64,000 nt of DNA, taken from the NCBI GenBank assembly GCA_044338255.1, contig JBIILZ010000005.1, positions 2,718 through 66,717 on the forward strand. The letters are read 5' to 3'. The DNA is from Planctomycetota bacterium (lineage in GTDB: Bacteria; Planctomycetota; UBA11346). Shown here one piece after another: positions 37,358 through 52,631 of this stretch; position 1 is the first letter of the stretch; each line of letters begins with the position of its first letter. The notes below the pieces were generated by a model. It saw only the letters and a list, made by a program, of their open reading frames with translations, had not been told where the DNA came from and searched no databases. The translations under genes were made by a program, and so were the position numbers.

Positions 37358-37577
37358 GTGCTCTTCCTGAATTGAGTGCCTGAATGGGCAGGCAGTGCCC
37401 GGTTAGGCACGCGGGCTATGATCGAATGGGCGTGGTTGGCGGCGAACCTTCTGTAGCAGATCGCGCGATGATCGCATAATATCCGTAAAATACCGTTAAA
37501 TTAAGCAATCTTCAGCGTTGAACAGGCGTACCTTCCGATTGGCACGGAGCGCACTGTGGTGGGACGTGAGGATTCCT

Positions 37578-39557
37578 ATGTCAGCCGTCACTCCTTGCCG
37601 TGCCCTGGTTTCTGAGCGCTTCCCGGTGGCCTCGTTCGTGGTCGAAGTACCTCCCGAACGATGCTTCGAATTGGCCTGCGCCACCGACCCCGCGCTGTTC
37701 CATCCCACCAATCAACCGCAACGCACCGCCAAGAATTTCTGGACCAGCCGCTTCGGCGGTCTGATGCGTGCGCCGGCGGGAAGGGCGACCTACCTGCTGC
37801 CGCCTGAGCAGCTGCGCCATTTCGCCGGTGCGCCGCGCCTGTACTACGCGCTCGGAACCTATGGCGGTGTCAACGGCGAACGGCCACAGTTCTCGATCCA
37901 GGCAAGTCAGCCCGAACGTATTCCTTACATCCGCATCGCCCCTGATTTTACCGGTCGTTCGCTCGATCGTCGGCGATTGGAGGGGGTCGCGGTCGGTGAC
38001 AACCGCTATGGTCGCAAGGCCCACGATCTGGTTTGGGGCGGCGATCTCCTCGAACGCGCGGCTCCCGCGCATAGTTGGCGTGGAGCTCCTGGCGATGGCG
38101 CTGCCGATGGTGCCACTGCTGATGGTGCCACTGCTGATGGTGCCACAGCGGTGCTGCTGGCACCCGCGCCGAGCGTGCGGTCTCCCGTAGCGTCGCCCGA
38201 TCTGCTCTTGGCCGATGAACCGAGCGGCTGCGAACATCCGGATGAATTAGCGACCAGCGCTCATTCCCCCGTGGCCCTCGATGTCGACGACGGCCAAGAG
38301 CCTTATGGCCGCCAACGCAGTCCACGACGGACGTCGTCTGCGCCACAGTTTTCCGCGCCACAGGCAACGCCCCGTGCTGCCCGCCCCGCCGCGCGTGCGC
38401 CTGCCGCGTATGGCCGCCGCGGCACGCGCTATGGATCAGCTGACGAGGAGACGTCCGAGAGCGTCACCGCCTGGGCCGAGCACGATCCCGATTTCAGCGA
38501 TGACGATGATGGCCATGCCACCCATGACGATGACGCTCAGCCAGTCCTGGGTTCGGCCGGCCGCAAGGTGGCCCGCCAACTGGCGGCGAGCGAACTCGAC
38601 CTTGCCGAAAAATTCCGCATCGTGCAGCTGGTCGCGGAATTTGAGTCGGGTTTGCAGACCGGTGATCTCGATCAGCCGCAACGCCGGGCCCGAGCCTATG
38701 GCGCGATCAACGCCAATACCGATGGTGCCGGTCTCTCTTGGGGCCTGATCCAATTCACCCAGAGCGGCGGCGCCCTCGGCGACGTCCTGCACGCCGCCGA
38801 GCAGCGCGATCCGGAGCAGTTCGCGGTGATCTTCGGTGCCGACAGCCAGGCTCTTCTGGCGACCACCGGCGCGGCTACCAGCAACGAACGCATGCAGCCG
38901 GTGGCGGGTGCTAATCTCTGGGAAGCGCCATGGGTCGCGCGTTTCCGCGCCGCTGGCGCCGTCGCCGCCTGTCAGGCCGCGCAAAACCAGGTCGCCATCG
39001 AACGCTACTTCGATCCGTTGCTGGCCTTCGCCGGCCGGCTGGGGTTCGATAGCGAACGGGCCCTGGCGATGCTCTATGATCGCGGCGTGCAGCAGGGCCT
39101 CGGCCGGGGACCGGCGTGGATCATGGCCGCCGCCGGTCCGATCCGTTCCGAGCGCAACGATCTGCCACGGGCCTTGCTGGCGCTCGGCCATGCCGATCTG
39201 CGTGCCTTCCAGCGCAGCGTGCCGGGCCTCACCGTCGATGGCCGTTTTGGCGCCAAATCGCATGCCGCCCTGACCGCCGCCTTGCGCGACCTGGGCAGCG
39301 CGTCGCCCTTCACCGTCAGCTCACGCGATGAGATGCTGACGATGATGGTCGCCGCCGCCGCCGACGAAGCTCAGGCCGCGGACAGCGCTCTCGCCGAGGC
39401 GCAGACCGCCCTCGCGGCCGCGCCGCAGCGCCAGGACTTGATCGCAGCCCGCGATCAGGCCCGCCGCACGCAGGTGTGGAAGCAGGCGCGCGCGCAGCGC
39501 CTGGATCAGCTGCGGCATAGTCAGGTGGTCACCGACACGCTCTATACCTGGGCCTGA
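37578..39557 (+). CDS. Cluster gene 1: unknown N-domain, acidic/disordered linker, GH46 (chitosanase/lysozyme-superfamily)-like domain, PG_binding_1 domain and a coiled-coil tail. No signal peptide.
   Basis: SD gagga lies 7 nt upstream of the ATG at 37578. ..VAEFESG..AYGAINANTDGAGLSWGLIQFTQSGGALGDVL.. resembles the GH46 catalytic region. ..FQRSVPGLTVDGRFGAKSHAALTAAL.. matches the PG_binding_1 pattern. Confidence 0.5.
   Translation: MSAVTPCRALVSERFPVASFVVEVPPERCFELACATDPALFHPTNQPQRTAKNFWTSRFGGLMRAPAGRATYLLPPEQLRHFAGAPRLYYALGTYGGVNGERPQFSIQASQPERIPYIRIAPDFTGRSLDRRRLEGVAVGDNRYGRKAHDLVWGGDLLERAAPAHSWRGAPGDGAADGATADGATADGATAVLLAPAPSVRSPVASPDLLLADEPSGCEHPDELATSAHSPVALDVDDGQEPYGRQRSPRRTSSAPQFSAPQATPRAARPAARAPAAYGRRGTRYGSADEETSESVTAWAEHDPDFSDDDDGHATHDDDAQPVLGSAGRKVARQLAASELDLAEKFRIVQLVAEFESGLQTGDLDQPQRRARAYGAINANTDGAGLSWGLIQFTQSGGALGDVLHAAEQRDPEQFAVIFGADSQALLATTGAATSNERMQPVAGANLWEAPWVARFRAAGAVAACQAAQNQVAIERYFDPLLAFAGRLGFDSERALAMLYDRGVQQGLGRGPAWIMAAAGPIRSERNDLPRALLALGHADLRAFQRSVPGLTVDGRFGAKSHAALTAALRDLGSASPFTVSSRDEMLTMMVAAAADEAQAADSALAEAQTALAAAPQRQDLIAARDQARRTQVWKQARAQRLDQLRHSQVVTDTLYTWA
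38094..38150 (+). repeat. In-frame 12/15-bp tandem repeat (DGAA DGATA DGATA DGATA) in cluster gene 1
   Basis: gatggtgccactgct units read directly. Confidence 0.95.
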
Positions 39558-39560
39558 TCC

Positions 39561-40820
39561 ATGGCTGACGCGCCTCATCTGGCCTTGGCGGCCTTGTCGC
39601 AGTTGGAGCGCAGCGCCGAACGGCTGGCGCCCAATGAACGCGCGGGATTCCGTCGGCAGCTGCAGACCATCGCCACGGTCCTCGGTGGGCACGCGGCGCC
39701 GCGGGCCACCGCCCAAGCGGCACGTGATCCGTATGCGGCGCTCTTGACCCCGGACTTGATGGTTCCGGGACGAGCTGTTCCGGCAGGAGCAGTTCCGGCA
39801 GGAGCATTCCCGGCACGCGCGGCGCACGCCGGCGCCCTCGGCACGCCGCTGGATCTGGAGGCCGAGCTCGGGAGGCAGGGCGGATCCGCTGCATCAGGCG
39901 GCGATGAGCGCGGTCCGGAACAGGCCGCGGGTACATTGCCGGCAATGGGTCCCGCTCCGGCATCCGCCGCTCCAGCGGCAAAACGCCCGGATGCCACCGA
40001 GATCATCGGCCAACGCGTCGCCACCGCCCTCGAGGCCGTGGCCTTCACCGACTTCGTCGCGGGGTTGGTGCGCGGGACCTTCCAGGCCATTGTCGACGCC
40101 ACCGCCCAGCAGATGCGCGAGTATGCCGACCTGGTGGCGAACATCTCGCGTTCGGCGGATTCGTTCACGCGCGACAACGTCACCGTGGAGCAGGCCCGGC
40201 TGTGGCTGTCGAATCGTCATGCGCTGGACCTCTACGTCGCCGTGCCGCAACCCGGCCGCGGCGGTACGCCGACCCTCTGCGTGCAGGCGCGCAGCGTCGG
40301 GCAATCGCCGGAATGGTTGGATCAGTACCAGTTGAGCGGCGCTGAGCTGAACAACGAATTGAGCGAAGGTCCGCTGCTGGCGGCGGGGCGGGCCAAGCTC
40401 GGTGAAGAGCGCTTGCAGAACCTCGCCTCGATGGTGCTGATGGGCTTGAACCGGGTGGTGGTCAAAGACGGCGAAATCGCCGCCAAGCTGCAGTTCCATG
40501 CCACGGCCCAGGATCGCAGCGCGGCGGAAGTCGCGGTCGAGAATCGTGGTCAGCAGGGCAACATTGCCCAGCGCCAGACCGAGATGAGCGCCCAGGCCAT
40601 AACCATGGTCTCGACCAACAAGGCCAACGCCCAGTCGGATGCCAACATCCGCGCCGATCTGATGGGCGAAGTGCGCATAAAATTCGCCACCGAGACCTTC
40701 AACCTCAATCAATTCGCCGACACCCAGGCGATCCAGCTGATCTCCCAGCACGCCCGCTGGCGCGGCGATGTGCCCGCCGCCGCCCCGGCCACGCCACCGC
40801 CGGCTCCTGGAAACGGCTGA
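39561..40820 (+). CDS. Cluster paralogue A (419 aa) of an unrecognised family
   Basis: Shares three blocks with ORFs at 46488, 47793, 48929 and 51093: FTDFVAGLVRGTFQAIVDA.., ..ASMVLMGLNRVVVKDGEIAAKLQF.., ..LMGEVRIKFATETFNLNQF. Starts 3 nt after gene 1. Confidence 0.8.
   Translation: MADAPHLALAALSQLERSAERLAPNERAGFRRQLQTIATVLGGHAAPRATAQAARDPYAALLTPDLMVPGRAVPAGAVPAGAFPARAAHAGALGTPLDLEAELGRQGGSAASGGDERGPEQAAGTLPAMGPAPASAAPAAKRPDATEIIGQRVATALEAVAFTDFVAGLVRGTFQAIVDATAQQMREYADLVANISRSADSFTRDNVTVEQARLWLSNRHALDLYVAVPQPGRGGTPTLCVQARSVGQSPEWLDQYQLSGAELNNELSEGPLLAAGRAKLGEERLQNLASMVLMGLNRVVVKDGEIAAKLQFHATAQDRSAAEVAVENRGQQGNIAQRQTEMSAQAITMVSTNKANAQSDANIRADLMGEVRIKFATETFNLNQFADTQAIQLISQHARWRGDVPAAAPATPPPAPGNG
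39774..39818 (+). repeat. In-frame 15-bp tandem repeat x3 (AVPAG AVPAG AFPAR) in paralogue A
   Basis: Read directly. Confidence 0.95.
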
Positions 40821-41065
40821 TGCAGACGCTCGAACAGTTCCTGGTCGTTTTGGCCGAGGCGGTGATGGCGAGCGCCGAGCACGCCACGTTGCGCGTCAGC
40901 GTCACCGACGCCGATCTCACGGTTCCGATCGAGACTCGCGCCAATCGCCACGGCGATCTGTGCGCGAGCATGCCGCGTAGCCGGCTGATCACCGGCTTCG
41001 CGCCCGTCACCAGCCGGCTGCATGCGGTGTTCGTGCGCGACGATCACGACGAGGTGGCGCCGTGA
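40820..41065 (+). CDS. 81-aa protein, possible insert-free mini-version of the paralogue core
   Basis: High GC3. The start overlaps the paralogue A stop (TGATG). LEQFLVVLAEAVMASAEHA + TLRVSVTDADLTVPIE + SRLHAVFVRDD mirror blocks 1-3. Confidence 0.6.
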   Translation: MQTLEQFLVVLAEAVMASAEHATLRVSVTDADLTVPIETRANRHGDLCASMPRSRLITGFAPVTSRLHAVFVRDDHDEVAP

Positions 41066-41964
41066 ATCCGCAACGTCCAGCGGCGACGCCGTCGGTGCCG
41101 ATCGAGGATTTCCTGCAATCGCTCGGCTCGCAGCTCGATCGCGCCCAGGATTCGCTGGCTCTCAAGGTCCGCGCCGGACGGCGTCTGACCTGGGCGTTGA
41201 AGGACATCTCGCTCGATCTGCAGGTCTTCGTCGAGCATGACCCGCGCGGGCGCGTCACTTGGCGCCACGCCGGTCCCAATGAGCAGGGGGCCAGCCGCAT
41301 CAATCTGACCTTCACCACCATCACCAAGCCGATGGTCGAGGAGAACACCAGCGAGCTCGAAGAGGATCCGCGCGGGATCGATGATATCCGCCTTCAAGCC
41401 AAGCTCAGCGAGGCTGATACTCGGCAGTTGGAATGGATGGGCATCCGCACCGTCGGCCAGTTCCGCCGATTGTCGCAGGATACCGATGCACGAGCAGTGC
41501 AGGCGGTCTCGGGCATCCCCGTCGATCGCCTGACGGCCCTGCTGCAGGCCTCAGCGCAGCCGATGGTCAGCCGCAGCGAGATCACCGCCGATCACGACGG
41601 CACGCCCCTGGTGCGCCTGTACGGCGCCAATCTGAGCGACGGCAGCCACCCGGAAGTCCGCCTCAACGGCGAAGCCATGGAGGTCGTCGAATCCCGTCCG
41701 CATCGTCTGGTCGTGCGGCCCATGGCCCATCATCGCGATGGACCGGTCGAAGTTCTCTGCGCCGCCGGCCGCGCGAGCGGCTTCATGCGCCTACCGACGC
41801 TCCCGGTAAGCGCGGAAATACCGGCAACGCCCGTGGTTCTTGCCTCCGTCGCGGTTCCCGCAGCTGTTCCTGCAGCTGTTCCCGCAGCTGTTCCCGCAGC
41901 TGTTCCCGCAGCTGTTCCTGCAGCTGTTCCCGCAGCTGTTCTCCCAGCCAGGGTGAGCCCATGA
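41062..41964 (+). CDS. 300-aa protein: mini-core-like N-terminus, HhH-like segment, IPT/TIG-like beta domain, (VPAA)x7 tail
   Basis: The GTG start overlaps the previous stop (GTGA). ..PLVRLYGANLSDGSHPEVRLNGEAMEVVESRPHRLVVRP..GPVEV.. is a TIG-like pattern. Confidence 0.55.
   Translation: MNPQRPAATPSVPIEDFLQSLGSQLDRAQDSLALKVRAGRRLTWALKDISLDLQVFVEHDPRGRVTWRHAGPNEQGASRINLTFTTITKPMVEENTSELEEDPRGIDDIRLQAKLSEADTRQLEWMGIRTVGQFRRLSQDTDARAVQAVSGIPVDRLTALLQASAQPMVSRSEITADHDGTPLVRLYGANLSDGSHPEVRLNGEAMEVVESRPHRLVVRPMAHHRDGPVEVLCAAGRASGFMRLPTLPVSAEIPATPVVLASVAVPAAVPAAVPAAVPAAVPAAVPAAVPAAVLPARVSP
41854..41940 (+). repeat. In-frame 12-bp tandem repeat x7 (VPAA) at the C-terminus of the TIG-domain protein
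   Basis: gttcc(c/t)gcagct units read directly. Confidence 0.95.
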
Positions 41965-43403
41965 ATGGCGCGGTCATCCCCGGCCAGGTGCTGGTGCGCC
42001 TGCGCCCCGGCGTGGCTCTCAGCCACACCCCCAGCCATCGCGATGTGCAGGAGGGCGAACGCATCCACGCCGCCCATCTCGATCATGGTCCGGCGGATGC
42101 CGCCATCCGCCGCCACAGTCCGGCACAGCGCGTCAGTCGCATCCATCAAGCCGCCGGCGCCCTGGGCGTTCCTGGATTTCGTCATCAGGGTTGGAGCCGC
42201 CTCGAACAGCTGCTCGGCCTGCCGCGGATGATGCGCATCGACGTCAGCAACGCCGCATCGCTGCCGCACCTGCTCGAAGATCTGCGCGCCTGCGAGACCG
42301 TCGAATCCGCCGCCCCCAACCGCCTCTGCCGCTTGAAAGTGGTCGCAGAGCAACCGCGCCTGGGCAGCGCCGTCGGCGATCCGTTTGTACGCATCGGCCA
42401 TGCCCGTGCGCGCGCACTCGAACCCGGCGATCCGACGGTGATCATCGGCATCATCGACAGCGGTGTGCGTCTCGACCATCCGGAATTTATCGGCCGCCTG
42501 CGCGCTGGTCTGGATCTCGTCGAAGTCTTCGAGGGCGCGCCCGATGGCATGACCCTGGTCGGTGATATCCGCGATCGCGATCGCATTCCCGAAGACGAAC
42601 AGGGCCACGGCACGGCCTGCGCCGGCCTCATCGGCGCGCGCGGCCTGGGTGTGCCTCCGGGCTTGGCGGGATTCTCGCAACTGCTGCCGATCCGCGTCCT
42701 GGCGGCGGCCCGCGAGATCGGCTCGCCGCCCAATGTGGTCACCGAGGCCATCGGCTCGCTGGCGGACATCGATGCCGGTTTTAAATCGGCGATCGATCTT
42801 GGTGCCCGCGTGCTCAACCTGTCGTTCGGTACGCCGGCCTCGGCGCTCTTGCCGGGCGAGCCGGTACCACACGCCGAGCTGGTGCGCTACGCGTTGGCGC
42901 GCAACTGCCTGCTGATCGCGGCGGCGGGCAATAGCGGCATCGAGGAGCGCTACTTCCCCGCCTGCCTGCCGGGGGTCATCGCCGTCGGTGCCGTCGATGC
43001 CCATGATCATCCGGCCACGTTCAGCACCCGTGGCGAGCACGTTGCCATCTGCGCCCCGGGGACGGCGATCCCAGTGGTCGGCATCAATGGCTATCAGCGC
43101 ATGAGCGGCACCTCGTTCGCCGCGCCTCTGGTCACCGCCGCCTGCGCCCTGCTCGTGGCCCGCGCCGCCCGCCAGAGCTGCTGGCTGCCGGTGAGCGCGG
43201 CGCGTACCGCCCTCTGCCAGAGCGCACGCGCTTTTCCCCAGCCCACCAGCGGGTGCGGGAGCGGTATCCTCGATGTGCCGGCGGCCTTGGCGGCGGTCGA
43301 TGACCTGCTCGCTGATCCGTTGCAGGGTAATCCCACCGACGATGTCGACAGCGAGCTTTCGCCGGAGATGGAGGAGTCGCATGCACCTGCCCTTACCCGT
43401 TGA
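41961..43403 (+). CDS. Subtilisin-like S8 serine protease with an N-terminal pro-region and no signal peptide
   Basis: Catalytic triad contexts IGIIDSGV (Asp), HGTACAGLI (His) and SGTSFAAPLV (Ser). ATGA overlap with the upstream gene. Confidence 0.8.
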   Translation: MNGAVIPGQVLVRLRPGVALSHTPSHRDVQEGERIHAAHLDHGPADAAIRRHSPAQRVSRIHQAAGALGVPGFRHQGWSRLEQLLGLPRMMRIDVSNAASLPHLLEDLRACETVESAAPNRLCRLKVVAEQPRLGSAVGDPFVRIGHARARALEPGDPTVIIGIIDSGVRLDHPEFIGRLRAGLDLVEVFEGAPDGMTLVGDIRDRDRIPEDEQGHGTACAGLIGARGLGVPPGLAGFSQLLPIRVLAAAREIGSPPNVVTEAIGSLADIDAGFKSAIDLGARVLNLSFGTPASALLPGEPVPHAELVRYALARNCLLIAAAGNSGIEERYFPACLPGVIAVGAVDAHDHPATFSTRGEHVAICAPGTAIPVVGINGYQRMSGTSFAAPLVTAACALLVARAARQSCWLPVSAARTALCQSARAFPQPTSGCGSGILDVPAALAAVDDLLADPLQGNPTDDVDSELSPEMEESHAPALTR

Positions 43404-43498
43404 GAACAGGCTGATGCGGTCCAGCCGAGTGGGCGGGGTCGAATCCGGATGCACGGGGCCGCCAGGCCCACTTGGCCCATGCCGTCGTCGGGCTCCCC

Positions 43499-43514
43499 CG
43501 GCTGCAACGTTGCC
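43499..43514 (+). promoter_or_regulatory. Candidate sigma-54 (-24/-12) promoter for the second cluster operon
   Basis: cGGCtgcaacgTTGCc has GG at 43500-43501 and GC at 43512-43513 with the canonical spacing of TGGCAC-N5-TTGC. It lies about 97 nt upstream of the ATG at 43611 and downstream of a sigma-54 activator gene. Confidence 0.35.
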
Positions 43515-43520
43515 GACGCC

Positions 43521-43553
43521 GTCGCAAAAGTCGCAAAAGTTGCAAAAGTTGCC
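43521..43553. repeat. 9-bp tandem repeat x3.6 (gt[c/t]gcaaaa) in the inter-operon spacer
   Basis: Read directly. It lies immediately downstream of the candidate -12 element. Confidence 0.95.
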
Positions 43554-43610
43554 TTCCACTCTCGTCAACGCTCTCTCATCCACTGCCACTTTGCCCAGGA
43601 GTACCTTTTC

Positions 43611-45311
43611 ATGACCACCTGCGAGATCTACCCGGACCTGTACAAGAAACCGCCACTCAAGAACAGCGTCAGCCCTGACGAACTGGCAGTGGTCTACAAC
43701 AGCAACTTCCAGCGTCTGCGCCTGGCGCATGCCGTCGATTATGTTCTCAGCCAGAGCTTCAAGCTCGCCTGGAGCATCAAGGACGACTTCCTCAAGGATG
43801 CCATGGTCAAGGTCACCGCCGCTGACCCCAACCGCGATCAGCGGATCTTCTTTGTCTCGGTGCTCGGCCTGCTGCTCGCCAACAACATCTCCGATCCTTC
43901 GCTGGGCACGCAGCCGGCGTGGGCGGTGATCCGCTCAGCGGATGCCAGCAAGCGCAATATCACCTTGTCGGCGCCGCCGCCGGCGAACATCGATGGTGGT
44001 AGCAATCAGATCATCGTCCGCAATTTCCTGCTCCTCGATGAAGCCACTCTTGATGCTCACCAGCACAAGCAGCGTGTGGTCCTGGTCCGCCGCTTCGTCG
44101 ATTCGGTGGTCGATGCGGTCAAGGAGTTCCAGGATGCCACGGCGCTCTTCACCAAGGTCTTCCTGAGCCTGCGTGAGATCGGCACCAATCCGAGCAGCGA
44201 GGTCGGCCAGCCCGACACCACCACCATCTATCCGCGGCAGGTGGCAGAAGTCACCCGCCAGCTGATGCGGCGCAACGTCAACGCCGAGGATCCGCAGATC
44301 AACCATCTGATCAACGATGCCCTGAGCGTCGCCCTGGGCGGGGGTATCAACTCCGATCCCGGGGCCCGCGACATCGACATCATCGATCTCGATCTCGATC
44401 AGGGCAGCACCGCCGATGTCATCAGCTCCAACGTCCAGGCGCTGGCCGGCATCTACTACGCGGCGCAGCTCGAAGATCTCAAGTTTTTCGCGGTCGCCGA
44501 CAAGATCACCGAGCAGTTCATCAACGGCCTGGTACCGATCACTCGTGGTCCGGCCGGTGGGCGCATCTATGCCTATCACCGCGAGGCCCCCAGCCGCTTC
44601 ACCGAGTTCGAGCGCCGCAGCCTCTACGCGCGGACCTTCGGCCTCGCCCAGGGCTCGGTCGATGAGCACATGCCCAATCGCGAGTTCCAGGACCTCTGGC
44701 TGCGCTTCCTGTCGGCCACCAGCCTCTACAATCGCCAGACGCCGTATCAGCGCACGGCGGTCACCGATCAGCAGCTATTCAAGAGTGCCCGCGATCTGGC
44801 GGTGAACCTCTCCTTGCACGGCTACGCGGTGGCGCATTTCGCGGCCGTCGAATTGCAGCAGCTGGTGCGCGATGTGCACGCCATGCTTTCGGATCCGGAG
44901 ATGGTTGCCGCCTACGGCACCCGCGATGTCTGGCAGCTGGTCGACCGTATCAGCATCATGCATCTCGGCGGATCGGTCAACGGCGTGCGCAATCGGACCC
45001 TCGCGCAATCCGGCGGCCGGATCATCAAATGGCTCGCCGATCACAGCGCCATGCTCTCGAGCGCGATTACGGCCTCGGCGGGTGACGAGTTCCGTCAGCC
45101 GAACCTGGTCAACGATGTCGAACGTTGGCTGGCGGTGAATGGCGTCGTCGACACCACCGTGACCCAGTATGCCGAGCCGGTGATCTCTCAGGCGCAGCCG
45201 ACCATTCCCAATCTCGGCTTCAACGCCGGTGGTTCGATCAATGACGCCTTCAATTCGATGAATGCGATCGCCGGTAATTCGGCACTCAATCAGCCCGCTC
45301 TCACCGCTTGA
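43611..45311 (+). CDS. Cluster protein X (566 aa), unknown. Its C-terminal half is paralogous to the 299-aa protein Y.
   Basis: SD aggag lies 10 nt upstream. No recognisable motif. Shares the ..RFTEFERRSLYARTFG.. region with Y. Confidence 0.75.
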   Translation: MTTCEIYPDLYKKPPLKNSVSPDELAVVYNSNFQRLRLAHAVDYVLSQSFKLAWSIKDDFLKDAMVKVTAADPNRDQRIFFVSVLGLLLANNISDPSLGTQPAWAVIRSADASKRNITLSAPPPANIDGGSNQIIVRNFLLLDEATLDAHQHKQRVVLVRRFVDSVVDAVKEFQDATALFTKVFLSLREIGTNPSSEVGQPDTTTIYPRQVAEVTRQLMRRNVNAEDPQINHLINDALSVALGGGINSDPGARDIDIIDLDLDQGSTADVISSNVQALAGIYYAAQLEDLKFFAVADKITEQFINGLVPITRGPAGGRIYAYHREAPSRFTEFERRSLYARTFGLAQGSVDEHMPNREFQDLWLRFLSATSLYNRQTPYQRTAVTDQQLFKSARDLAVNLSLHGYAVAHFAAVELQQLVRDVHAMLSDPEMVAAYGTRDVWQLVDRISIMHLGGSVNGVRNRTLAQSGGRIIKWLADHSAMLSSAITASAGDEFRQPNLVNDVERWLAVNGVVDTTVTQYAEPVISQAQPTIPNLGFNAGGSINDAFNSMNAIAGNSALNQPALTA

Positions 45312-45337
45312 TCAACCCTCAACGACAAGGACCAGCC

Positions 45338-46402
45338 ATGCGCACCATCCGTGCCGCCGATGTCGTCAAACAACGCCTCGGCATCGCTGCCCGGCGCCTG
45401 GGTACCGCCAACCCGGCGACGGTGCTCGGGCGCATGCTCGACGACAGCTTCCGGCTGCCGCTGGGGGACCCCCGCTATCGGCAGAATCTCTTCACCCCCG
45501 GGCATATGCCGTTGGAACATTCCTTCTCGGAATATTCCGGGCATTCGCTGCGGCTCGATCTCGAACCCTTCGGTTCGGACATCTCGCCGCTGACCCGCCA
45601 ACAGGAGACCAGCCGGGCCATGCGCAGTCTGGTCAAGGGCACCTATGGCGATCAGGCCCTGCATTGGTTCGATCAGCGCAGCGAGCATTTCCGTCGCGGC
45701 CAGATGAGCGGGCACCATCGTTTTGGGGCGTGGTTTGGAGCCTCCTTCGATGATGGCGGGATGCGCGAGACCAAGGTCTATTATGAGTTGACCAACGACG
45801 ACCTTGAGGCCCTGCCGCCGAACCTGCTGCATGCCACGCGGGTAGCGATGGCGGCCTTGCCGGATCTGCGGCCCCTGGGTCTTTCGATCGCCTGCGGACG
45901 GAATTCCGGCGCTCAGCGCGTGTACCTGTTCCACAATGCCGACCTGCGCCTGCTCGATCTTGAACCGGTGATGAACAGTCTCGGCGTCGGCCATCAGCTG
46001 CCGAGCCTCCTGCAATCGCTGGGCCTGGTGCTCGGCGGACGCTTCACCCTGCCCAAGGGGGCGGCGATCATCGGCCTGCGCGATACCGCCAAGGGCGTCG
46101 AGATGTCGTTGTACACGCTGCTCCCGGCCTTCCCCGATCCACCGCGGGAGATGCATGGGCTGATCCAGATGCTCCTGCAGCAGCGACCGGATGCGCAGCG
46201 CAACTTCGCGCAGTGGCTACAGTCGATGACCCCCGATGACCGCAACGGTCCGGGCAACATCAGCACCGTCGGGGTACGCGTGACGCAGGCCCAACCGGCG
46301 CGGCTGAACATCTACTTCCTGCCGGTGGGGTATGATCGTCCGGCCGAACGCAGTCGTGACGAGGCTCGGGACGTCAGCGATCCGTACGCCCTGACGGCCT
46401 GA
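45338..46402 (+). CDS. DMATS/ABBA-type aromatic prenyltransferase-like protein
   Basis: SD aagga upstream. ..LPLGDPRYRQNLFTPGHMPLEHSFSE..SLRLDLEPFG.. resembles the N-terminal DMATS signature (P.LG..P...P.E.S.N...R...EP.G). Recurrent strand motifs are ETKVYYEL, QRVYLF and ARLNIYFLP. Confidence 0.45.
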   Translation: MRTIRAADVVKQRLGIAARRLGTANPATVLGRMLDDSFRLPLGDPRYRQNLFTPGHMPLEHSFSEYSGHSLRLDLEPFGSDISPLTRQQETSRAMRSLVKGTYGDQALHWFDQRSEHFRRGQMSGHHRFGAWFGASFDDGGMRETKVYYELTNDDLEALPPNLLHATRVAMAALPDLRPLGLSIACGRNSGAQRVYLFHNADLRLLDLEPVMNSLGVGHQLPSLLQSLGLVLGGRFTLPKGAAIIGLRDTAKGVEMSLYTLLPAFPDPPREMHGLIQMLLQQRPDAQRNFAQWLQSMTPDDRNGPGNISTVGVRVTQAQPARLNIYFLPVGYDRPAERSRDEARDVSDPYALTA

Positions 46403-46487
46403 TTCATTTCCGCACGCCACCATGGCCCACGGCCATGGTGGCGACACTCCGCTCAGTCGACCGCCGTTGGCGGTGAGGGACCTCTTC

Positions 46488-47786
46488 ATGACCAGCAAAA
46501 CACTCAGCGCCAGTCAACAGGCGATGGTGTCGGCCCAGGTTGATCGCTTGCTGGCGGGCAGCCAAGCGTGGCACACCCTGCCGCCGGCTGAACGCGAATC
46601 GATTCGCAGGCACACCGCGACCATCGCCGCGAGCATGGCCGCTGAGCGCCTGACGACGCTGGCCCATGGTCCCACGGGGGAGTCCGCTCCGCGCCCGGGA
46701 GGCGATCCCTATCATCAGCTCGGCGTACGCGCGCAGCCCGGAGCGCGCGCGCTGGCCGAAGCTCCGCCCTCGACGATCACCAGCAAAAGCAGCAATGGCA
46801 GCAATGTCTTCAAGGCCGAGGGCGTGGCCGCGGGAGTGACGCAGACCGCACGCATGGTGCGCGAGATCGACTTCCCGGCCTTCGTCTCGCAGTTGGTGCA
46901 CGGGACCTTCGACGCCGTGGTGCAATCCTCGATCACGCAGATGAAGGCCTACGGCGAACTGGTGCGCTCGGTGGCCATGTCGTTGAATGAATTCCGCGAT
47001 CAGAACGTGAGCATGGGTCAGGCCCGCGATCATCTGGTGCAGCGCTACCCGACGCTGTTTCAAATCAGCACCGATGAATCCGGGGGCGCCCGCGTCAGCT
47101 CCCGTCCCGGCGCCGAGAACGCGACCCTACCGAATTTCCGCCAGGATCTCGGGCTCAGTGATGACGTCGATGGCATCGACGATGATACCATCGAGGAGAA
47201 ACTGGTGCCGGCGGCGCGCGACGATTATGCCCGCAGCCGGCAGAAGCTGCTCGCGACCATGGTTCTCATGGGCATCAACCGCATCGTCGTCACCGATGGC
47301 AAGATCAATGCCAAGGTCCAGTTCAGCTTTCAGGCCAAGGACAAATTCAACCGCATGGCCACCGCCACCGACTATGAGAACATGGGCATCATGAAGGTCG
47401 CCCAAGGTTCCAGCGATGGTGCCAGCGGGGCCCTCGATGCCGATGGCAATCCCTCGCAGGTGCCGGTGCTCGATGCCCAGGGCAAGCTGATCCAGAATGG
47501 CCAGGGTAATCGGTATGCCACCGGCCAATATCAGAGTCTTGAGCAGCCGATCATCAAGATCGCCGAGACCAGCCAGAGCATGACCGATGCCAGTCTGACC
47601 GCGAGCGGTTCGATGATGGGCGAGGTCCAGCTCAACTTCAAAAGCGATGTCTTCCCGTTGGAGAAGATGCTCGATAGCGGCCAGATGTTCCGCCTCAATG
47701 CCATCCAGAGCGGGCCGGCCAGTGCTGCGCCAGCGGTTCCGGCGGCCGCCCCTGCTCCCGCCCCCGCAACCAGCGGCAGTCGCTGA
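46488..47786 (+). CDS. Cluster paralogue B (432 aa)
   Basis: Blocks IDFPAFVSQLVHGTFDAVVQSSITQMKAYGELV, LLATMVLMGINRIVVTDGKINAKVQF and MMGEVQLNFKSDVFPLEKM. SD gaggga upstream. Confidence 0.8.
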   Translation: MTSKTLSASQQAMVSAQVDRLLAGSQAWHTLPPAERESIRRHTATIAASMAAERLTTLAHGPTGESAPRPGGDPYHQLGVRAQPGARALAEAPPSTITSKSSNGSNVFKAEGVAAGVTQTARMVREIDFPAFVSQLVHGTFDAVVQSSITQMKAYGELVRSVAMSLNEFRDQNVSMGQARDHLVQRYPTLFQISTDESGGARVSSRPGAENATLPNFRQDLGLSDDVDGIDDDTIEEKLVPAARDDYARSRQKLLATMVLMGINRIVVTDGKINAKVQFSFQAKDKFNRMATATDYENMGIMKVAQGSSDGASGALDADGNPSQVPVLDAQGKLIQNGQGNRYATGQYQSLEQPIIKIAETSQSMTDASLTASGSMMGEVQLNFKSDVFPLEKMLDSGQMFRLNAIQSGPASAAPAVPAAAPAPAPATSGSR

Positions 47787-47792
47787 GGCGTC

Positions 47793-48932
47793 ATGGCCGT
47801 CGCTCCCGCTCCTGAAGCAGTTCGTCGACAGGTTGGTGCGGCCTTGGCCGCATCACCGGCGTTCACGGCCCTGCCCGCGGCTGAGCGCGAAGCGTTTACC
47901 AACAACCTTGCGAAAGTCGGGGTGTTCCTCGGGCAGAATCAGATACCGGCGGTAAAGAGCGCCCCGACGCTCAGGCCGGCGGCCCGGGCCCTGGCCAGCG
48001 CCGTCGACGATACCGCCAAACGCCTCTCGGAAAAACCCGGGCAGGTCGGCAACAACTTCACCGCCGGAGCGATGCGCGAAGGCAATGCGGTGTTCCGCGA
48101 CTTGGTCCAGGAAGTCGACTTCCCAGAATTCGTCTCGGGTCTGGTGAAGGGGGTCTTCAACGCCGTTGTCGACGCCTCGATCCAGCAGATGAAGGCCTAT
48201 GCCGACATGCTCGCAGCCGTGGCCAAGAGCGTCGATCAGTTCGCCGACGAGAACATCAGCGATGAGCAGGCGCGCACGCACCTCGCGGCGCAGAATCCGC
48301 AATTGCTTGAGGTCAGCGACAGCGGCAGCGGCCCACGCCTGCAGCTGAAGGATGGCGATGCCGATCTCAGCACCCTCGGCGAGCGCTACAAACTGATGTC
48401 GGTCGACGTCAGCGATGCCGCCAGCGAAACGGCCCTGGTCAACGCCGCCAAGCTGGAGCTTGCGCAGCAGCGTCAGCAACTGCTGTCGACCATGGTCCTG
48501 ATGGGCATCAACCGCATCGTCATCACCAACGGACGCATCAACGCCAAGGTCGTCTTCGATATCCATGCCAGCGACCAGGCCGATCGCCAGGCTCGCGCCT
48601 CGATGAGTGATGCCAGTGAAAGCTCGTCGGCGGCGGTGGCCGCAGTCGCCGCCCCGTGGGGCGCCGCCGGCGGTTACAGCAGCACCAGTCACCGCACGAC
48701 GGTGCGCAGTTCGATCAATGACAGCAGCGAATCGAAAGCTGACATGAATGCCAAGCTGAGCGGCGATGTGCTGTTGGCTTTCAAGTCCGAGACCCTCCCG
48801 CTCGAGCGCATGCTCGACCCCGGTGGCATCCAGCTGCTCACCAGCAAATCGCAACCTTTGCCGAGTTCTGGTCGTCCCGGCGCATCGCCGGTGGCGTCCC
48901 CAGCCCCTGTTCCGTCCGGAGCCCATCCATGA
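47793..48932 (+). CDS. Cluster paralogue C (379 aa)
   Basis: Blocks VDFPEFVSGLVKGVFNAVVDASIQQMKAYADML, LLSTMVLMGINRIVITNGRINAKVVF and LSGDVLLAFKSETLPLERM. Confidence 0.8.
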   Translation: MAVAPAPEAVRRQVGAALAASPAFTALPAAEREAFTNNLAKVGVFLGQNQIPAVKSAPTLRPAARALASAVDDTAKRLSEKPGQVGNNFTAGAMREGNAVFRDLVQEVDFPEFVSGLVKGVFNAVVDASIQQMKAYADMLAAVAKSVDQFADENISDEQARTHLAAQNPQLLEVSDSGSGPRLQLKDGDADLSTLGERYKLMSVDVSDAASETALVNAAKLELAQQRQQLLSTMVLMGINRIVITNGRINAKVVFDIHASDQADRQARASMSDASESSSAAVAAVAAPWGAAGGYSSTSHRTTVRSSINDSSESKADMNAKLSGDVLLAFKSETLPLERMLDPGGIQLLTSKSQPLPSSGRPGASPVASPAPVPSGAHP

Positions 48933-50200
48933 CTTATCTGCCTCCTTTGCGCTCCGTCAGCGTGGCTCCCACTTATCCGCCGCTGGCCTCGCCCATCCAG
49001 CGTCGATCGGCGCCGCCGGGTCCGCGCTATGGCCAGGTCGCGGCCCCGGTGCGGGCCCCGCAGCAGGTCGCCGACATCAGTACGCAAGTCACCCAGGCGC
49101 TGCGGCAGAATCCCGAATTCCGCAATCTGGAACCGCGCGAACGCGAAGCCCTGGAGCGCAATCTCGCCAAGATCACCGGCTATCTCAGCGATCCGGCAGC
49201 GGGTTTGCGCGGTGCGGCGCGGGCCAAGGCCCTGGCTCCGCATGAGCGTGGTCTGGCAGCGCGGGGTTTGGCCGATGATCAAGTCATCAGCGATCAGAAT
49301 CGGGTGATCACCCAACAGAATGACGGCGGGCAGATGGATCGGGGGATCAAGAATTTCAGCGGCGATGCCGCCAATGCTGGTAGCAAGGCCATGGCCGACC
49401 AGGTCCAGGCGATCAACTTCCCGAAATTCGTCGCCAGCCTGATTACCGGCGTTTTCAACGCCATCGTCGATGCCTCGATCAAGCAGATGAAAGCCTACGG
49501 TGACATGCTCGCCTCGGTGGCCAAGGCCGTCGATCAGTTCGCACAAGACCACATCACCATGCCCCAGGCCAAGCAGAATGTGCAGAAGAGCTTCCCCAAC
49601 ATCTTCGACATGATCGACAAGGGCGACGGCACGGGTAGCGATCTGAAGGTCAAGGACGGGGTCGATGCGATGCCCGATTTCAAGGCGAAATACGGTTTGG
49701 ATGAGGACGTCGACCCCACTGATCCCGAGGGCCTGGACAAGATCGTTATCGCCGCCCAGCTGCAACTGGCCCGCCAACGTCAACAGCAGCTGGCCTCGAT
49801 GGTGATGATGGGCGTCAACCGTATCGTGGTCACCGATGGCAAGATCAATGCCAAGGTCTTCATCGAGGTCAAGACCAAGGACAGTTCGACGCGCAACCGC
49901 AACATGGACCGTCATCAGAGCGACACCCAGATCCATCAGCAGGATAAACACGAGGGCAGCGTCTGGGGCACCGATGAGGAAGACACCCATGACACCCGCA
50001 TCTCGACCGCGAGTGTCAATGAGAGCGGCGGCAATGTCGATCAGAAGACCCTCGACACCAAGGCCCAGCTCACCGGGGAAGTCTCGATTAATTTCAAGAG
50101 CGACTACTTCCCCCTCGAAAAACTGACCTCGCCCGCCGATCTCACTAACATGCAAGAGATCGCGACTCCGAAGAGTGCTAAGGCACCCAGCGCAAGATGA
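48929..50200 (+). CDS. Cluster paralogue D (423 aa)
   Basis: Blocks INFPKFVASLITGVFNAIVDASIKQMKAYGDML, LASMVMMGVNRIVVTDGKINAKVFI and LTGEVSINFKSDYFPLEKL. ATGA overlap with paralogue C. Confidence 0.8.
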   Translation: MTYLPPLRSVSVAPTYPPLASPIQRRSAPPGPRYGQVAAPVRAPQQVADISTQVTQALRQNPEFRNLEPREREALERNLAKITGYLSDPAAGLRGAARAKALAPHERGLAARGLADDQVISDQNRVITQQNDGGQMDRGIKNFSGDAANAGSKAMADQVQAINFPKFVASLITGVFNAIVDASIKQMKAYGDMLASVAKAVDQFAQDHITMPQAKQNVQKSFPNIFDMIDKGDGTGSDLKVKDGVDAMPDFKAKYGLDEDVDPTDPEGLDKIVIAAQLQLARQRQQQLASMVMMGVNRIVVTDGKINAKVFIEVKTKDSSTRNRNMDRHQSDTQIHQQDKHEGSVWGTDEEDTHDTRISTASVNESGGNVDQKTLDTKAQLTGEVSINFKSDYFPLEKLTSPADLTNMQEIATPKSAKAPSAR

Positions 50201-51096
50201 ACGCCTCCGTCCCGGCAGCTTCGCGGCGGCGTCTGCCGTTCGCCTTGGCCAGTGCCGCCCGTCCGGCCTTACCGGGCCTGCCGGCATTGCGTCTGGCCTT
50301 GGCGCGCTGCGACGATCAATTGGCGCGGCATCTGGCGGCGGCAGTGGCGCGTTATGGCAGCGCCGCCCTCGACGTTGTCGACCTGCCCGATTTCGCTCCC
50401 GAAGCTATTGATGGTGAAGCCCTGCACATCGCCGCCGTGCTGCTGTGGACAGCGGAACTCGAAGCCGCCGGCCTGCCGGGTTTCCTCGAAGCCCTTGCCG
50501 AGCAGGTCGCGGATGGCCGTTGGCTGGCCGATCTCGGCAATGGCGGTATGCGCCTGCTGCGCTGGTGGCGCGAACGCAGCCAGCGCTTCACCGCCGATGA
50601 GCGCCTCGGCCTCTATCAGCGGATGTTCGGTGATGACTCCGGTTTTTCGCGGGATTTCGCGACCCTGGTCAATGCCCTCGACCAGTTGGGGCGGATCGCG
50701 GTCGGGGAAAATCCCGCGCATGTGCGGGCGCAGGTGACGCAGGCGGCGATGACCCTGGCCGGGCCGCTCAGCCGCCGGGCCACCGGCATCGCCGCCTTCG
50801 CCGCCCGCGACATCATCGCCCAGGTGCGCACGGCGATCGAGCTACTGACTCTTCCCGACATCACTGCTGCCCTGGGCGGCCAAGGGCCCTGGGCGGCGAT
50901 CCGCCTGCATGGTAACGAACTGCTCGGGCACGTGCCGGCCTGCACCGTGCACCTCGCCCGCGCTCGTGCCGGGCACCAGATCCTCACCTGGTTGGGCGAG
51001 CACGCGGCTGACCTTTCCGGCGGGATGCTCGCGGTCTCGCCCGGCGATGCCGCGGTCGATGCCGCGCAGGCGTGGCTTGCGGTCGAGGCTGGATGA
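50197..51096 (+). CDS. Cluster protein Y (299 aa), unknown, paralogous to the C-terminal half of X
   Basis: ..RFTADERLGLYQRMFG.. (50581-50630) aligns with X ..RFTEFERRSLYARTFG.. (44591-44640) with conserved flanks. ATGA overlap with paralogue D. Confidence 0.7.
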   Translation: MNASVPAASRRRLPFALASAARPALPGLPALRLALARCDDQLARHLAAAVARYGSAALDVVDLPDFAPEAIDGEALHIAAVLLWTAELEAAGLPGFLEALAEQVADGRWLADLGNGGMRLLRWWRERSQRFTADERLGLYQRMFGDDSGFSRDFATLVNALDQLGRIAVGENPAHVRAQVTQAAMTLAGPLSRRATGIAAFAARDIIAQVRTAIELLTLPDITAALGGQGPWAAIRLHGNELLGHVPACTVHLARARAGHQILTWLGEHAADLSGGMLAVSPGDAAVDAAQAWLAVEAG

Positions 51097-52631
51097 TGAC
51101 GGCGGCGGGCGCCATCCGGGCTCCGTGGTCCCACCAGCGCTCGGCGGTGTCCAAGGCTGTGCCAAAACCTCGACTGTGGGGCAGCCCCCGGGCGGCGGCG
51201 CAGCTCAGCCCCGAGCACGCGCAGGCGCAAAGCGCCGTGCGTCAGGCAGTCTCCGCCTTGGTGGCAAAGACTCCGGCGCTGCAGAGCCAGCCGCGCTTGG
51301 CGGCGGCCTTGGCCACACAATTGGAACAGGTGGCCCTCGTTGGCGCCGAGTTGCTCGCGGAGGACCGGCGCCTGACACGGCAGGTTAATGGCGCACGCGA
51401 GCAATCGCCACGCTCCCTGCGTCCACCTCTTGCACGTCCACCTTTTGCACGTCCACCTCTTGCACGTCCACCTCTTGCACACCTACCACTGGCACGCGCG
51501 CAACAAGCCAGCGAACATTTCGATCCGCGTGCCACCAATGCTGCCGCCGGGACGGTGCAGGCGCTGCGCGATGCCATCGATTTCCCGACCTTCGTGACCT
51601 CGTTGATCAACGGCGTCTTCCATTCTATCACCAGTTCGAACCTCTCGCAGATCACCGCCATCCAGGACCTGCTGAGCAATGTCACCGCCAGCTCCGATGG
51701 CTTCGCCGCCAGCAATATCAGCGACGCGCAGGTGCAGGCGTGGCTGACGTCGCGGTTTCCCTTCCTGACCCGCGGCAGCGACGGCATTCTGAGAGTGGCA
51801 CCGGAAGCCGATCTCAGCGACCAGCAGCCGACCTTGATGAGCAGCCTCGATGCCACTGCTGATGAAGTCGCGACCATTGATGAAAGCGAGCTGACGACAA
51901 CGCTACTGCCGCTGGCGCGGCGCAAGATGGGCCGCGATCGCCAGCAGGTGATGGCGACCCTGGTGATGATGGGGCTGCAGCGTGTGGTCGTCGATGATGG
52001 CCGTCTGCATGCCTCGATGGAGTTGCAGGTCGATGCGCGCAGCGCCGCCGAGCAGATGGAGGCCAGCCAGTTCGACACGCGCACTACCGCGGGAGTCTCG
52101 GCCAGCGCCAGTGCCGGACCATGGGGAGCCAGCGCCAGTGTCAGCACCACGGTCGGTTATGTGCGCAGCGATGCCCTGCATACCCAAGAAGAGATCGCCG
52201 CCCGCGCCGGACTGCGTTCGAGCGTCGATCTGACCTTCCGTACCGAGCAGGTGCCCTTGGACCGCATGGCCGATCAGCAGGCGCGTCAGGCGATCATGGC
52301 CCGCACGCCGGTGCCGACGAGCTGGAGCAATGCATCGCTGCTCGATCAGGGGAGCCACCTTAGCGCGCCGACATTTACCGCGCCGCCGGCTTTGCCCGCT
52401 CCACCGCCCGCTCCACCGCCCGCTCCACCGCCCGCTCCCGCTCCGCCAGCGAGTCGCCCGCCGGCGCCACCAGTCGTATCGCCGCCAGCCGCCAGTCGTG
52501 CACCGGCGCCACCGGCCGCTTCACCACCGGTCGTATCACCACCGGTCGTATCACCACCAGTCGTAGCACCACCAGTCGCATCATCACCGGTCGCGGCACC
52601 GGTGGTCTCACCCGCGCCACCGGCGCGTTGA
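51093..52631 (+). CDS. Cluster paralogue E (about 512 aa), the most divergent, with a roughly 90-aa Pro/Ala/Val-rich tail
   Basis: Blocks IDFPTFVTSLINGVFHSITSSNLSQITAIQDLL, VMATLVMMGLQRVVVDDGRLHASMEL and LRSSVDLTFRTEQVPLDRM. The start overlaps the Y stop. Confidence 0.75.
   Translation: MMTAAGAIRAPWSHQRSAVSKAVPKPRLWGSPRAAAQLSPEHAQAQSAVRQAVSALVAKTPALQSQPRLAAALATQLEQVALVGAELLAEDRRLTRQVNGAREQSPRSLRPPLARPPFARPPLARPPLAHLPLARAQQASEHFDPRATNAAAGTVQALRDAIDFPTFVTSLINGVFHSITSSNLSQITAIQDLLSNVTASSDGFAASNISDAQVQAWLTSRFPFLTRGSDGILRVAPEADLSDQQPTLMSSLDATADEVATIDESELTTTLLPLARRKMGRDRQQVMATLVMMGLQRVVVDDGRLHASMELQVDARSAAEQMEASQFDTRTTAGVSASASAGPWGASASVSTTVGYVRSDALHTQEEIAARAGLRSSVDLTFRTEQVPLDRMADQQARQAIMARTPVPTSWSNASLLDQGSHLSAPTFTAPPALPAPPPAPPPAPPPAPAPPASRPPAPPVVSPPAASRAPAPPAASPPVVSPPVVSPPVVAPPVASSPVAAPVVSPAPPAR
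51420..51494 (+). repeat. In-frame 15-bp tandem repeat x5 (RPPLA/RPPFA) in paralogue E
   Basis: cgtccacct(c/t)ttgca units read directly. Confidence 0.95.
52398..52595 (+). repeat. Composite in-frame tandem repeats in the paralogue E tail: 12 bp x3 (APPP) and 15 bp x5 (SPPVV-like)
   Basis: gctccaccgccc x3 (52398-52433) and tcaccaccggtcgta-type units (52521-52595), read directly. Confidence 0.9.

Follow-up and report, generated by a model that had tools for sequence, protein, structure and literature searches.

A syntenic operon of a Planctomycetota bacterium encodes five paralogous proteins without a known family or fold, together with a subtilisin-like protease and a prenyltransferase-fold enzyme

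The DNA considered here, henceforth the window, is a stretch of 64,000 nucleotides from a Planctomycetota bacterium of the UBA11346 lineage (GenBank assembly GCA_044338255.1, contig JBIILZ010000005.1, positions 2,718 to 66,717 of the forward strand). It carries an operon in which five paralogous genes, named A to E, are interspersed with genes of other kinds, among which we find a subtilisin-like protease (S8) and an enzyme with the fold of aromatic prenyltransferases (p364). The five paralogues, each with three conserved blocks, are located as follows.

39561..40820 (+): paralogue A, 419 residues; block 1 at 40041-40142, block 2 at 40422-40487, block 3 at 40665-40715
46422..47786 (+): paralogue B, 454 residues; block 1 at 46869-46970, block 2 at 47250-47315, block 3 at 47619-47669
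47793..48932 (+): paralogue C, 379 residues; block 1 at 48117-48218, block 2 at 48480-48548, block 3 at 48762-48812
48929..50200 (+): paralogue D, 423 residues; block 1 at 49415-49516, block 2 at 49790-49855, block 3 at 50075-50125
51072..52631 (+): paralogue E, 519 residues when read from a GTG codon, with a Pro-rich tail of 120 residues; block 1 at 51579-51680, block 2 at 51951-52016, block 3 at 52218-52268

In the case of E, translation probably starts further downstream, at a pair of ATG codons (51093/51096) that overlaps the stop codon of the preceding gene, p299.

Homology of these five open reading frames (ORFs) is beyond doubt. An initial annotation, made from the letters alone, had recognised five related genes at these positions, and all ten pairwise BLASTP comparisons do indeed give significant matches, with 27-35% identity over 250-420 residues and E-values (4e-21 to 3e-53) far below 0.01. 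Run against all six-frame ORFs of the window, a profile of the family retrieves A to E only (E 5e-82 to 3e-134). When the five proteins are aligned with MAFFT, blocks 1-3, which had been picked out by direct comparison of the translations, come out collinear and coincide with the maxima of conservation: mean pairwise identity reaches 0.48 in block 1, 0.53 in block 2 and 0.42 in block 3, against 0.15-0.27 outside the blocks (0.25 in insert 1 and 0.15 in insert 2, the segments that separate them). The same pattern is found across 84 members of the family. The N-terminal helix with its LPxxERE signature is real as well. It had been credited to four of the five paralogues; it belongs to all five, one of them divergent, because a hidden Markov model (HMM) of this segment matches all five ORFs, and no other ORF of the window, with E-values of 1e-17 to 1e-10 and a weak 2e-4 for paralogue E.

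As regards the inserts, we must depart from the initial annotation, which took them to be hypervariable and to differ completely in length. Only insert 2 varies in length (59-101 residues); insert 1 spans 87-93 residues in all five proteins. Furthermore, inserts 1 and 2 are 76-94% identical to those of the orthologues found in a Planctomycetota metagenome-assembled genome (MAG). Being conserved between orthologues, both inserts are paralogue-specific, not hypervariable. The parts that evolve faster in this comparison are the linker following the N-terminal hairpin (45-85% identity) and the tails (62-88%). The Pro/Ala tails that had been described are present, and such linkers and tails are generated in part by tandem repeats within the coding sequence, their units being 12-30 bp long (38101-38146, 39762-39817, 41854-41941, 51420-51496, 52394-52438 and 52509-52600). 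Examples are (ARPPL)x4 and (SPPVV)x6 in E, (ATADG)x3 in p679, the first gene of the operon, and (AAVP)x7 in p300, where the repeat is that of 41854-41941. These segments probably change length through repeat slippage.

Short motifs distinguish the types of paralogues. The linker of A- and B-type proteins comprises DPYA-x-x-L-x-TP-x-DLQR, that of C- and D-type proteins DPV-[DE]-DLKKRLA. Insert 2 of the C type displays [AS]PWG[GA]GG...SH-x-TTV-x-SS-[VI]-DD-[TS]-SESKA, with its Trp residue present in 63 of 68 members, while the D type has GGWF or FWGT, and the B type Y-x-x-(x)-G-x-Y (35 of 54 members). In the A type, the proteins of gamma- and beta-proteobacteria and of Acidobacteria have NWGERG, and those of myxobacteria an Ile residue in place of the loop Trp. 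Nearly all A-type proteins (69 of 70) carry either DPYA in the linker or the loop Trp of NWGERG, and both are found together in only two.

An AlphaFold2 model of paralogue A was built on an alignment of 84 sequences. Its mean predicted local distance difference test score (pLDDT) is 68.5, very unevenly distributed along the protein.

Residues 4-45: helical hairpin, pLDDT > 90
Residues 45-140: disordered Pro/Ala-rich linker, low confidence
Residues 162-196: long helix corresponding to block 1, pLDDT ~80 (81-83), 96 from residue 191
Following segment: insert 1, short helices and a small hairpin, pLDDT 96-98
Residues 265-295: second long helix leading into block 2, pLDDT 98-91
Residues 304-317 and 362-375: long beta-hairpin (end of block 2, and block 3), pLDDT ~66-75
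Residues 319-360: tip of the hairpin, corresponding to insert 2, disordered
After residue 375: short C-terminal helices and, beyond them, the Pro/Ala tail

In this model block 2 makes the end of the 265-295 helix and the first strand of the long hairpin, of which block 3 is the returning strand. This supports blocks 1-3 being part of one unit, as well as an N-terminal module common to the paralogues, with a disordered linker behind it. Insert 1 is predicted to be a constant folded sub-domain, the most confidently modelled part of the protein. Hence, of the early idea of a small conserved core displaying variable loops, we keep the core, with its three blocks in one modelled unit, and give up the rest, as insert 1 is modelled as a folded sub-domain of constant length and the loops are not hypervariable. 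The further suggestions of an assembly role for the core, and of a docking, processing or targeting role for the N-terminal helix, are conjectural. As predicted, a member of the family would consist of an N-terminal hairpin, a Pro/Ala linker, a helical core, a long beta-hairpin ending in a paralogue-specific tip loop, a C-terminal helix and a Pro/Ala tail.

The family had been left without a name, and none of the curated libraries that we tried supplies one. Scans of A to E against Pfam-A, NCBIfam, PHROGs (phage proteins) and PADLOC (defence systems) gave nothing above noise, no Pfam family recurs among the 84 aligned members, and family profiles run against PDB sequences reach at best E 1. 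Gasdermin profiles from Pfam and PADLOC do not match A to E. Searching the full-length model of A with Foldseek, disordered parts included, gave a best E of 0.32 in the PDB and 0.02 in BFVD (predicted viral structures). All matches had template modelling (TM) scores below 0.3, and what appeared was an assortment of V-ATPase stalk helices, COMMD proteins, and portal and coat proteins. Since Foldseek gave only noise with either collection, we rejected readings of A as a capsid or encapsulin protein, a flagellin, a ClyA-type toxin, a gasdermin or a COMMD protein. A substrate of a type VII-like secretion system, with its helical hairpin, WxG motif and mycosin-type S8 protease, was also considered; it was rejected because Ecc components are absent and because the WG motif lies in the loop of a beta-hairpin, not of a helical one. 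Comparing the family with p300 and with p620 using hhalign revealed no relationship. As neither sequence nor fold ties A to E to any known family, we regard the family, along with its operon, as new in terms of annotation and fold, and it is unlikely that a profile-profile search, or a structure search with a trimmed core, would link the family to a known superfamily.

Despite its anonymity the family is large. An exhaustive HMM search of 1.84 billion representative sequences found 1,994 clusters (at 50% identity) with E <= 1e-3, of which 585 with E <= 1e-30. A word-indexed search listed at least 120 homologues, all with E < 1e-72 and all named 'hypothetical protein', and a scan of one genome per species gave 320 loci. 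The hosts are Planctomycetota, Myxococcota, Gemmatimonadota, Acidobacteriota, Lysobacteraceae/Xanthomonas (Lysobacterales), Burkholderiales, Thermomicrobiales and Chthonomonadales, the closest relatives of the window being Planctomycetota MAGs (98% and 76% identity). The phage collection that was searched had no match. The neighbours of A to E were followed by tblastn from the window into 80 related loci. Their order reads: sigma-54 activator (in one clade), p679, A, p81, p300, S8, p620, p364, B, C, D (which is not always present), p299, E. A complete copy of the operon resides on pBPJTT, an 880-kb replicon of Burkholderia pyrrocinia, and there, as in a metagenome contig, a member of the family follows p299 at the position of E. 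Because the same positional classes recur in a syntenic operon across phyla and orders, including Myxococcota, Planctomycetota, Acidobacteriota, Gemmatimonadota, Lysobacterales and Burkholderiales, A to E are ancient and non-redundant classes, not the outcome of a local expansion. The partners of A to E in the window are the following.

36119..37357 (+): sigma-54-dependent activator, AAA+ domain and Fis-type helix-turn-helix (Pfam Sigma54_activat E 2e-58, HTH_8)
37540..37555 (+): sigma-54-like promoter element TGGCACGGAGCGCACT, good -24 box (TGGCAC), degenerate -12 box, 38 nucleotides upstream of the ATG of p679
37578..39557 (+): p679, N-terminal domain (about residues 21-176) and lysozyme/GH46-like C-terminal domain (weak GH46 match, E 4e-4)
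40820..41065 (+): p81, 81 residues
41062..41964 (+): p300, Trypco2/Pepco-like N-domain, HhH (DUF4332-like) segment, IPT/TIG-like domain, (AAVP)n tail
41961..43403 (+): S8, subtilisin-like serine protease (Pfam Peptidase_S8 E 3e-35)
43611..45311 (+): p620, helical protein (probable start at 43611; the ORF opens at 43449)
45338..46402 (+): p364, 354 residues, ABBA/DMATS-type aromatic prenyltransferase fold
50197..51096 (+): p299, paralogue of the C-terminal half of p620

The operon is tightly coupled, the stop codon of one gene overlapping the start codon of the next at A/p81, p81/p300, p300/S8, C/D, D/p299 and p299/E. From the sigma-54 activator to E, we found neither a signal peptide nor a transmembrane or hydrophobic helix, and the core parts of the operon are all predicted to be cytoplasmic.

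Among these partners, the S8 protease and the two small genes upstream form a group of their own. The catalytic triad motifs of S8 (DSG, HGT and GTS) are recognised by eye, and the enzyme has neither a signal peptide nor a sensor domain of its own. Its best relatives in the PDB are AK.1 protease, cyanobactin proteases of the PatA/PagA type, thermitase and an intracellular subtilisin, generic subtilisins scoring about as well as the others. The ORF of p81, missing from the earlier list, lies between A and p300, overlapping stop or start codons of both neighbours; jackhmmer finds its homologues in about 66 loci. Trypco2 is the sole family that recurs for p81, with weak matches in 4 of 36 members (best E 0.0094). 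For p300, matches below threshold recur among 22 members: Trypco2 in 5 (best E 0.0013), DUF4332 in 5 and TIG in 7. On the p300 N-domain, the Trypco2 model PF19631, the gathering score of which is 24.2 bits, gives 13.9 bits (E 0.064) in the window and 16.6 bits (E 0.0098) in the Burkholderia orthologue. The p81 protein is collinear with this N-domain (hhalign, E 0.0026). As judged by eye, the p300 family displays a conserved TTIT-x-PM-[IV]-EEN followed by a charged stretch containing Pro; a profile search of the PDB with p300 gave no match. Altogether, the weak matches hint that p81 and the N-domain of p300 may be Trypco2/Pepco-like.

This matters in view of what is known of this family. Trypco1/2 proteins, now named Pepco, form a pre-assembled, nonameric or decameric beta-barrel with basal amphipathic helices, which turns into a pore toxin once the adjacent protease has removed a C-terminal tail after a conserved Ile residue (Evans et al., 2025, bioRxiv 10.1101/2025.11.14.688446). 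An adjoining protease is present in the operon as well, and the order p81, p300, S8 is also seen in related loci. As in Pepco-protease modules (Kaur et al., 2020, PMC7159879; bioRxiv 10.1101/2025.11.14.688446), a small protein with an amphipathic N-terminal helix and beta-strands stands directly upstream of a serine protease; Trypco2 matches recur, weakly, in p300 and p81; many p679 homologues comprise trypsin domains; and membrane attack licensed by a protease would be the likely logic. There are differences, however: the likeness is that of the neighbours p81 and p300, not of A to E, which have no similarity to Pepco; S8 has no fused sensor; and the operon is larger, with its prenyltransferase-fold enzyme, p620 and p299, and wall hydrolases.

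The fold of p364 is another matter, as here the model is confident. The AlphaFold2 model (pLDDT 91) shows exactly five alpha-alpha-beta-beta repeats, as in the prenyltransferase barrel with its ten antiparallel strands. Foldseek retrieves 111 PDB matches with E <= 1e-3, including CymD (E 2e-13), DMATS1, PriB and IptA (for the four, E 2e-13 to 1e-10, probability 1.00, TM 0.62-0.72). At the level of sequence, no Pfam model, those of Trp_DMAT, PTase_Orf2 and cyanobactin prenyltransferase included, matches at E <= 0.1, and a sequence-profile search of the PDB gives nothing at E <= 1. The protein is strongly conserved (61-66% column identity), with many invariant R, K, Y, E and D residues; invariant R, K, Y and E occur in strand-like motifs (K-x-YYE, R-x-Y and R-F), as candidates for the diphosphate-binding Arg/Lys/Tyr ring and the catalytic Glu that line such barrels. 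We are confident that p364 has the DMATS/ABBA fold, and transferase activity may go with it. No genes for small-molecule biosynthesis are found nearby. Next to it, p620, conserved in 65 of the 80 loci, has no Pfam or PDB match. A search with its profile finds p299 (E 2.5e-26), so that the operon has a second paralogous pair, both proteins being helical; the position of p299 after the B/C/D genes is conserved.

The first gene of the operon, p679, is found in various guises. Its N-domain of about 160 residues, which had no match in a profile search of the PDB, is present in 66 loci. Following it, in 30 homologues, come modules of many kinds: Trypsin (17), Amidase_2 (15), Peptidase_C70 (15), C92 (6), CHAP (3), NlpC/P60 (3), SLT (2) and GH46-like (2), and in other lineages the proteins reach 1,900 residues (for example in loci L049, L068 and L035). 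Judging from these domains, p679 is probably a member of a polymorphic family degrading cell walls and proteins, without a signal peptide, and its constant N-domain with swappable modules resembles the architecture of polymorphic effectors. Control by sigma-54 would likewise depend on the clade. An activator adjoins the operon in 25 of the 80 loci. In the Myxococcota/Planctomycetota clade (L004-L032), 17 of about 24 loci have a canonical TGGCAC-N5-xTGC[AT] element 30-113 nucleotides (264 in one case) ahead of the gene orthologous to p679. In the loci of the gamma/beta-proteobacterial clade we found no such promoter, and the adjacent activator is usually absent. In the B. pyrrocinia replicon a DUF3467 protein (L084, 1403-1810), without counterpart in the window, is encoded between the sigma-54 regulator and an amidase-type first gene, and downstream of that operon come genes for an adenylate/guanylate cyclase and a patatin-like phospholipase.

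A divergent and minimal variant resides on plasmids of Tolypothrix and Microchaete. In Tolypothrix sp. PCC 7712 (plasmid NZ_CP063787.1, 6379-17597) it comprises an alpha/beta hydrolase, S8, a peptidoglycan-binding protein, a p620-like protein, one member of the family whose hairpin tip is rich in F, G and Y, two unknown proteins, a p81-like protein and a p300-like protein. From gene content, the set kept in this cyanobacterial variant would be the most stable partnership of the family.

What might such an operon do? We tentatively propose that A to E are distinct subunits of a hetero-oligomeric assembly that would breach the envelope of a cell in concert with pore-formers and hydrolases. The five proteins would be assembled in the cytoplasm as non-redundant subunits. 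Their long beta-hairpins would join subunits or touch the membrane, exposing Gly- and aromatic-rich tips, while the N-terminal hairpin and the linker would serve for docking or as a pro-region. Maturing or licensing the assembly and the Pepco-like proteins would be the task of S8, and p364 may lipidate (prenylate) Trp or Tyr residues that are exposed. After activation the complex, with the pore-formers and the wall hydrolases, would breach either the envelope of the cell itself (regulated lysis or abortive death) or that of a competitor. Taken to its most explicit form, this scenario becomes quite improbable as a whole: an undescribed envelope-breaching machine made of four or five subunits of a new fold, matured by S8, prenylated on Trp/Tyr by a DMATS-type enzyme, and driven with Pepco-like pores and hydrolases onto the membrane.

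Several features speak for the proposal of a hetero-oligomeric assembly. The family is large, with synteny and positional classes maintained across phyla, and conservation of the inserts between orthologues fits a specific role for each subunit. The model contrasts a core at pLDDT 96-98 with a hairpin at ~66-75 and a disordered tip; that hairpins are modelled less confidently than the core is expected for elements that pair between subunits. Exposed aromatic motifs are there, and so are the company of S8, the prenyltransferase barrel, the Trypco2-like matches, the wall-hydrolase domains, the gene set kept by the cyanobacterial plasmid variant, the overlapping stop and start codons and the sigma-54 promoters of 17 loci. 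Other features weigh against it. Classical beta-barrel pore formers have short hairpin tips, unlike the loops of 59-101 polar residues found here. PADLOC and PHROG scans of A to E gave nothing, the Trypco2 matches of p81 and p300 fall below the Pfam threshold, and the promoter of the window, its -12 box being degenerate, is matched by a consensus scan no better than chance. The complementarity of DPYA and loop Trp in A-type proteins follows clade boundaries, and therefore may mirror phylogeny only. Finally, lipidation cannot be essential to the family, because the Tolypothrix variant has no p364 prenyltransferase-like gene.

Two known systems resemble what is proposed for A to E. The ClyA-type tripartite toxins (AhlABC, SmhABC, Nhe, Hbl) are likewise made of adjacent, paralogous and non-redundant soluble subunits of 350-450 residues, rich in helices, with a helical body and a beta-hairpin 'tongue'. 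Yet their structures do not appear among the Foldseek PDB matches listed for the model of A (50 of 72). They are secreted, whereas A to E have no signal peptide, and where the toxins have a short and hydrophobic tongue, the hairpins of A to E end in long polar loops. Flagellin-like proteins also have conserved helical segments flanking a variable exposed insert, exist as multiple paralogues in a genome and are under sigma-54 control in some bacteria, but here we have no match in sequence or fold, a different topology and no genes for an export apparatus.

Other ways to account for the same genes must be weighed against an envelope-breaching assembly. In the first, A to E would form a particle or a non-canonical export device packaging or delivering p679 to other bacteria, in competition or predation. 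The constant N-domain of p679 with its swappable modules does look like a polymorphic effector, the hosts include many soil taxa that live by predation or competition (such as Myxococcota and Lysobacter), and proteins of the core operon lack signal peptides. We nevertheless consider it unlikely: an ATPase, a membrane channel and an immunity gene are all missing from the core operon, the model of A showed no similarity to capsid, encapsulin, tail-tube or secretion proteins in the Foldseek searches, and no relatives came up in the phage collection searched.

A death module with a protease as effector (Pepco-like proteins, S8 and wall hydrolase) would be a second possibility, with A to E sensing triggers such as phage proteins by their paralogue-specific loops while holding the protease or hydrolase inactive. 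Modules of this kind generally come with sensors of diverse types (bioRxiv 10.1101/2025.11.14.688446). Here, S8 has no sensor domain, several non-redundant paralogues present different exposed loops, and the core proteins are all predicted to be cytoplasmic. That being said, the loops of A to E do not diversify between orthologues but are conserved. The operon encodes neither an NTPase nor a STAND-type switch, and PADLOC gave no match. It is also found on the chromosome in single copy, with synteny across phyla, without the patchiness of typical defence islands. This makes a sensing role quite unlikely.

A third explanation sees in A to E mainly the substrates of a PatA-like S8 and an ABBA prenyltransferase, as in ribosomally synthesized and post-translationally modified peptides (RiPPs): the N-terminal hairpin would be a leader, and segments of loop and linker would be prenylated and perhaps excised. 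A subtilisin-like protease and a prenyltransferase-barrel enzyme in one operon are the hallmark pair of cyanobactin clusters (PatA/PatG with PatF/LynF/PagF), N-terminal proteases of which are among the best PDB relatives of S8, and p364 has the DMATS fold. As candidate substrates, A to E do have a conserved, leader-like N-terminal helix and variable segments between conserved blocks, with conserved and exposed aromatic motifs inside otherwise variable disordered segments. The comparison breaks down at several points. The candidates are folded proteins of 380-520 residues, not peptides of 50-100 residues, and their core of about 250 residues, strongly conserved and confidently modelled, is unlike a leader or core peptide. 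A short precursor peptide, YcaO and the PatG macrocyclase, hallmarks of cyanobactins, are absent both from the operon of the window and from that of Burkholderia as annotated by the Prokaryotic Genome Annotation Pipeline (PGAP), and so is an exporter; heterocyclase, macrocyclase and oxidase are all missing. Generic subtilisins score as well as PatA, p364 is nearest to the DMATS/CymD type and goes undetected by Pfam, the Tolypothrix variant does without a prenyltransferase-like gene, and the loop Trp is replaced by Ile in the myxobacterial A type. We regard a RiPP-like role as improbable.

Finally, the similarity of A to E might be dismissed as a by-product of low complexity in ORFs that are not real genes, in a window with a guanine-plus-cytosine (GC) content of ~65%, long spurious ORFs on both strands and Pro/Ala repeats, an explanation with virtually no chance of being right, already refuted by conserved blocks that are not of low complexity, pairwise E-values far below chance, hundreds of homologues with E < 1e-70 across phyla in conserved synteny, and a confident model of the helical core.

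Further genes follow the operon.

52647..55304 (+): p885, 885 residues, two hydrophobic segments according to hydropathy
55297..56358 (+): stand-alone Peptidase_C70 (AvrRpt2-like papain-fold protease), Pfam E 4e-31
59841..61199 (+): large serine recombinase

The p885 gene lies between E and the stand-alone C70 gene, with which its codons overlap. It has no match in Pfam or the PDB and no homologue in the 80 loci, the flanks of which mostly stop near p299; it may be specific to the lineage, and may or may not belong to the system. The C70 domain is elsewhere fused into the p679 protein (15 of the 30 homologues). At the right end of the window (62000-64000) GC content falls to ~52%, which, with the recombinase, suggests that a mobile element or an island boundary lies downstream of the operon. 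Far upstream, on the opposite strand (20748-24569, -), is encoded a protein of 1,273 residues in which a long N-terminal part precedes a DUF2252 domain at the C terminus.

What we have here is a view onto a conserved system of 10-12 genes, most of them without a family name. The order of about ten consecutive genes is maintained in hosts as diverse as Planctomycetota, Myxococcota, Lysobacter and Burkholderia, forming a system that is invisible to current annotation; no structure has been solved for any of the family-specific genes, and keyword searches of the literature on the gene combination of the operon returned nothing relevant. Brought together, a subtilase, a prenyltransferase barrel, candidate protease-activated pore-formers and swappable wall hydrolases point to regulated destruction of the envelope, which would be relevant to programmed lysis in bacteria, to phage defence and to killing between bacteria. 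Were p364 to modify A to E, this would be a new type of bacterial protein lipidation, and the first ABBA prenyltransferase to act on full-length bacterial proteins. Even without a mechanism, the family merits an entry in Pfam.

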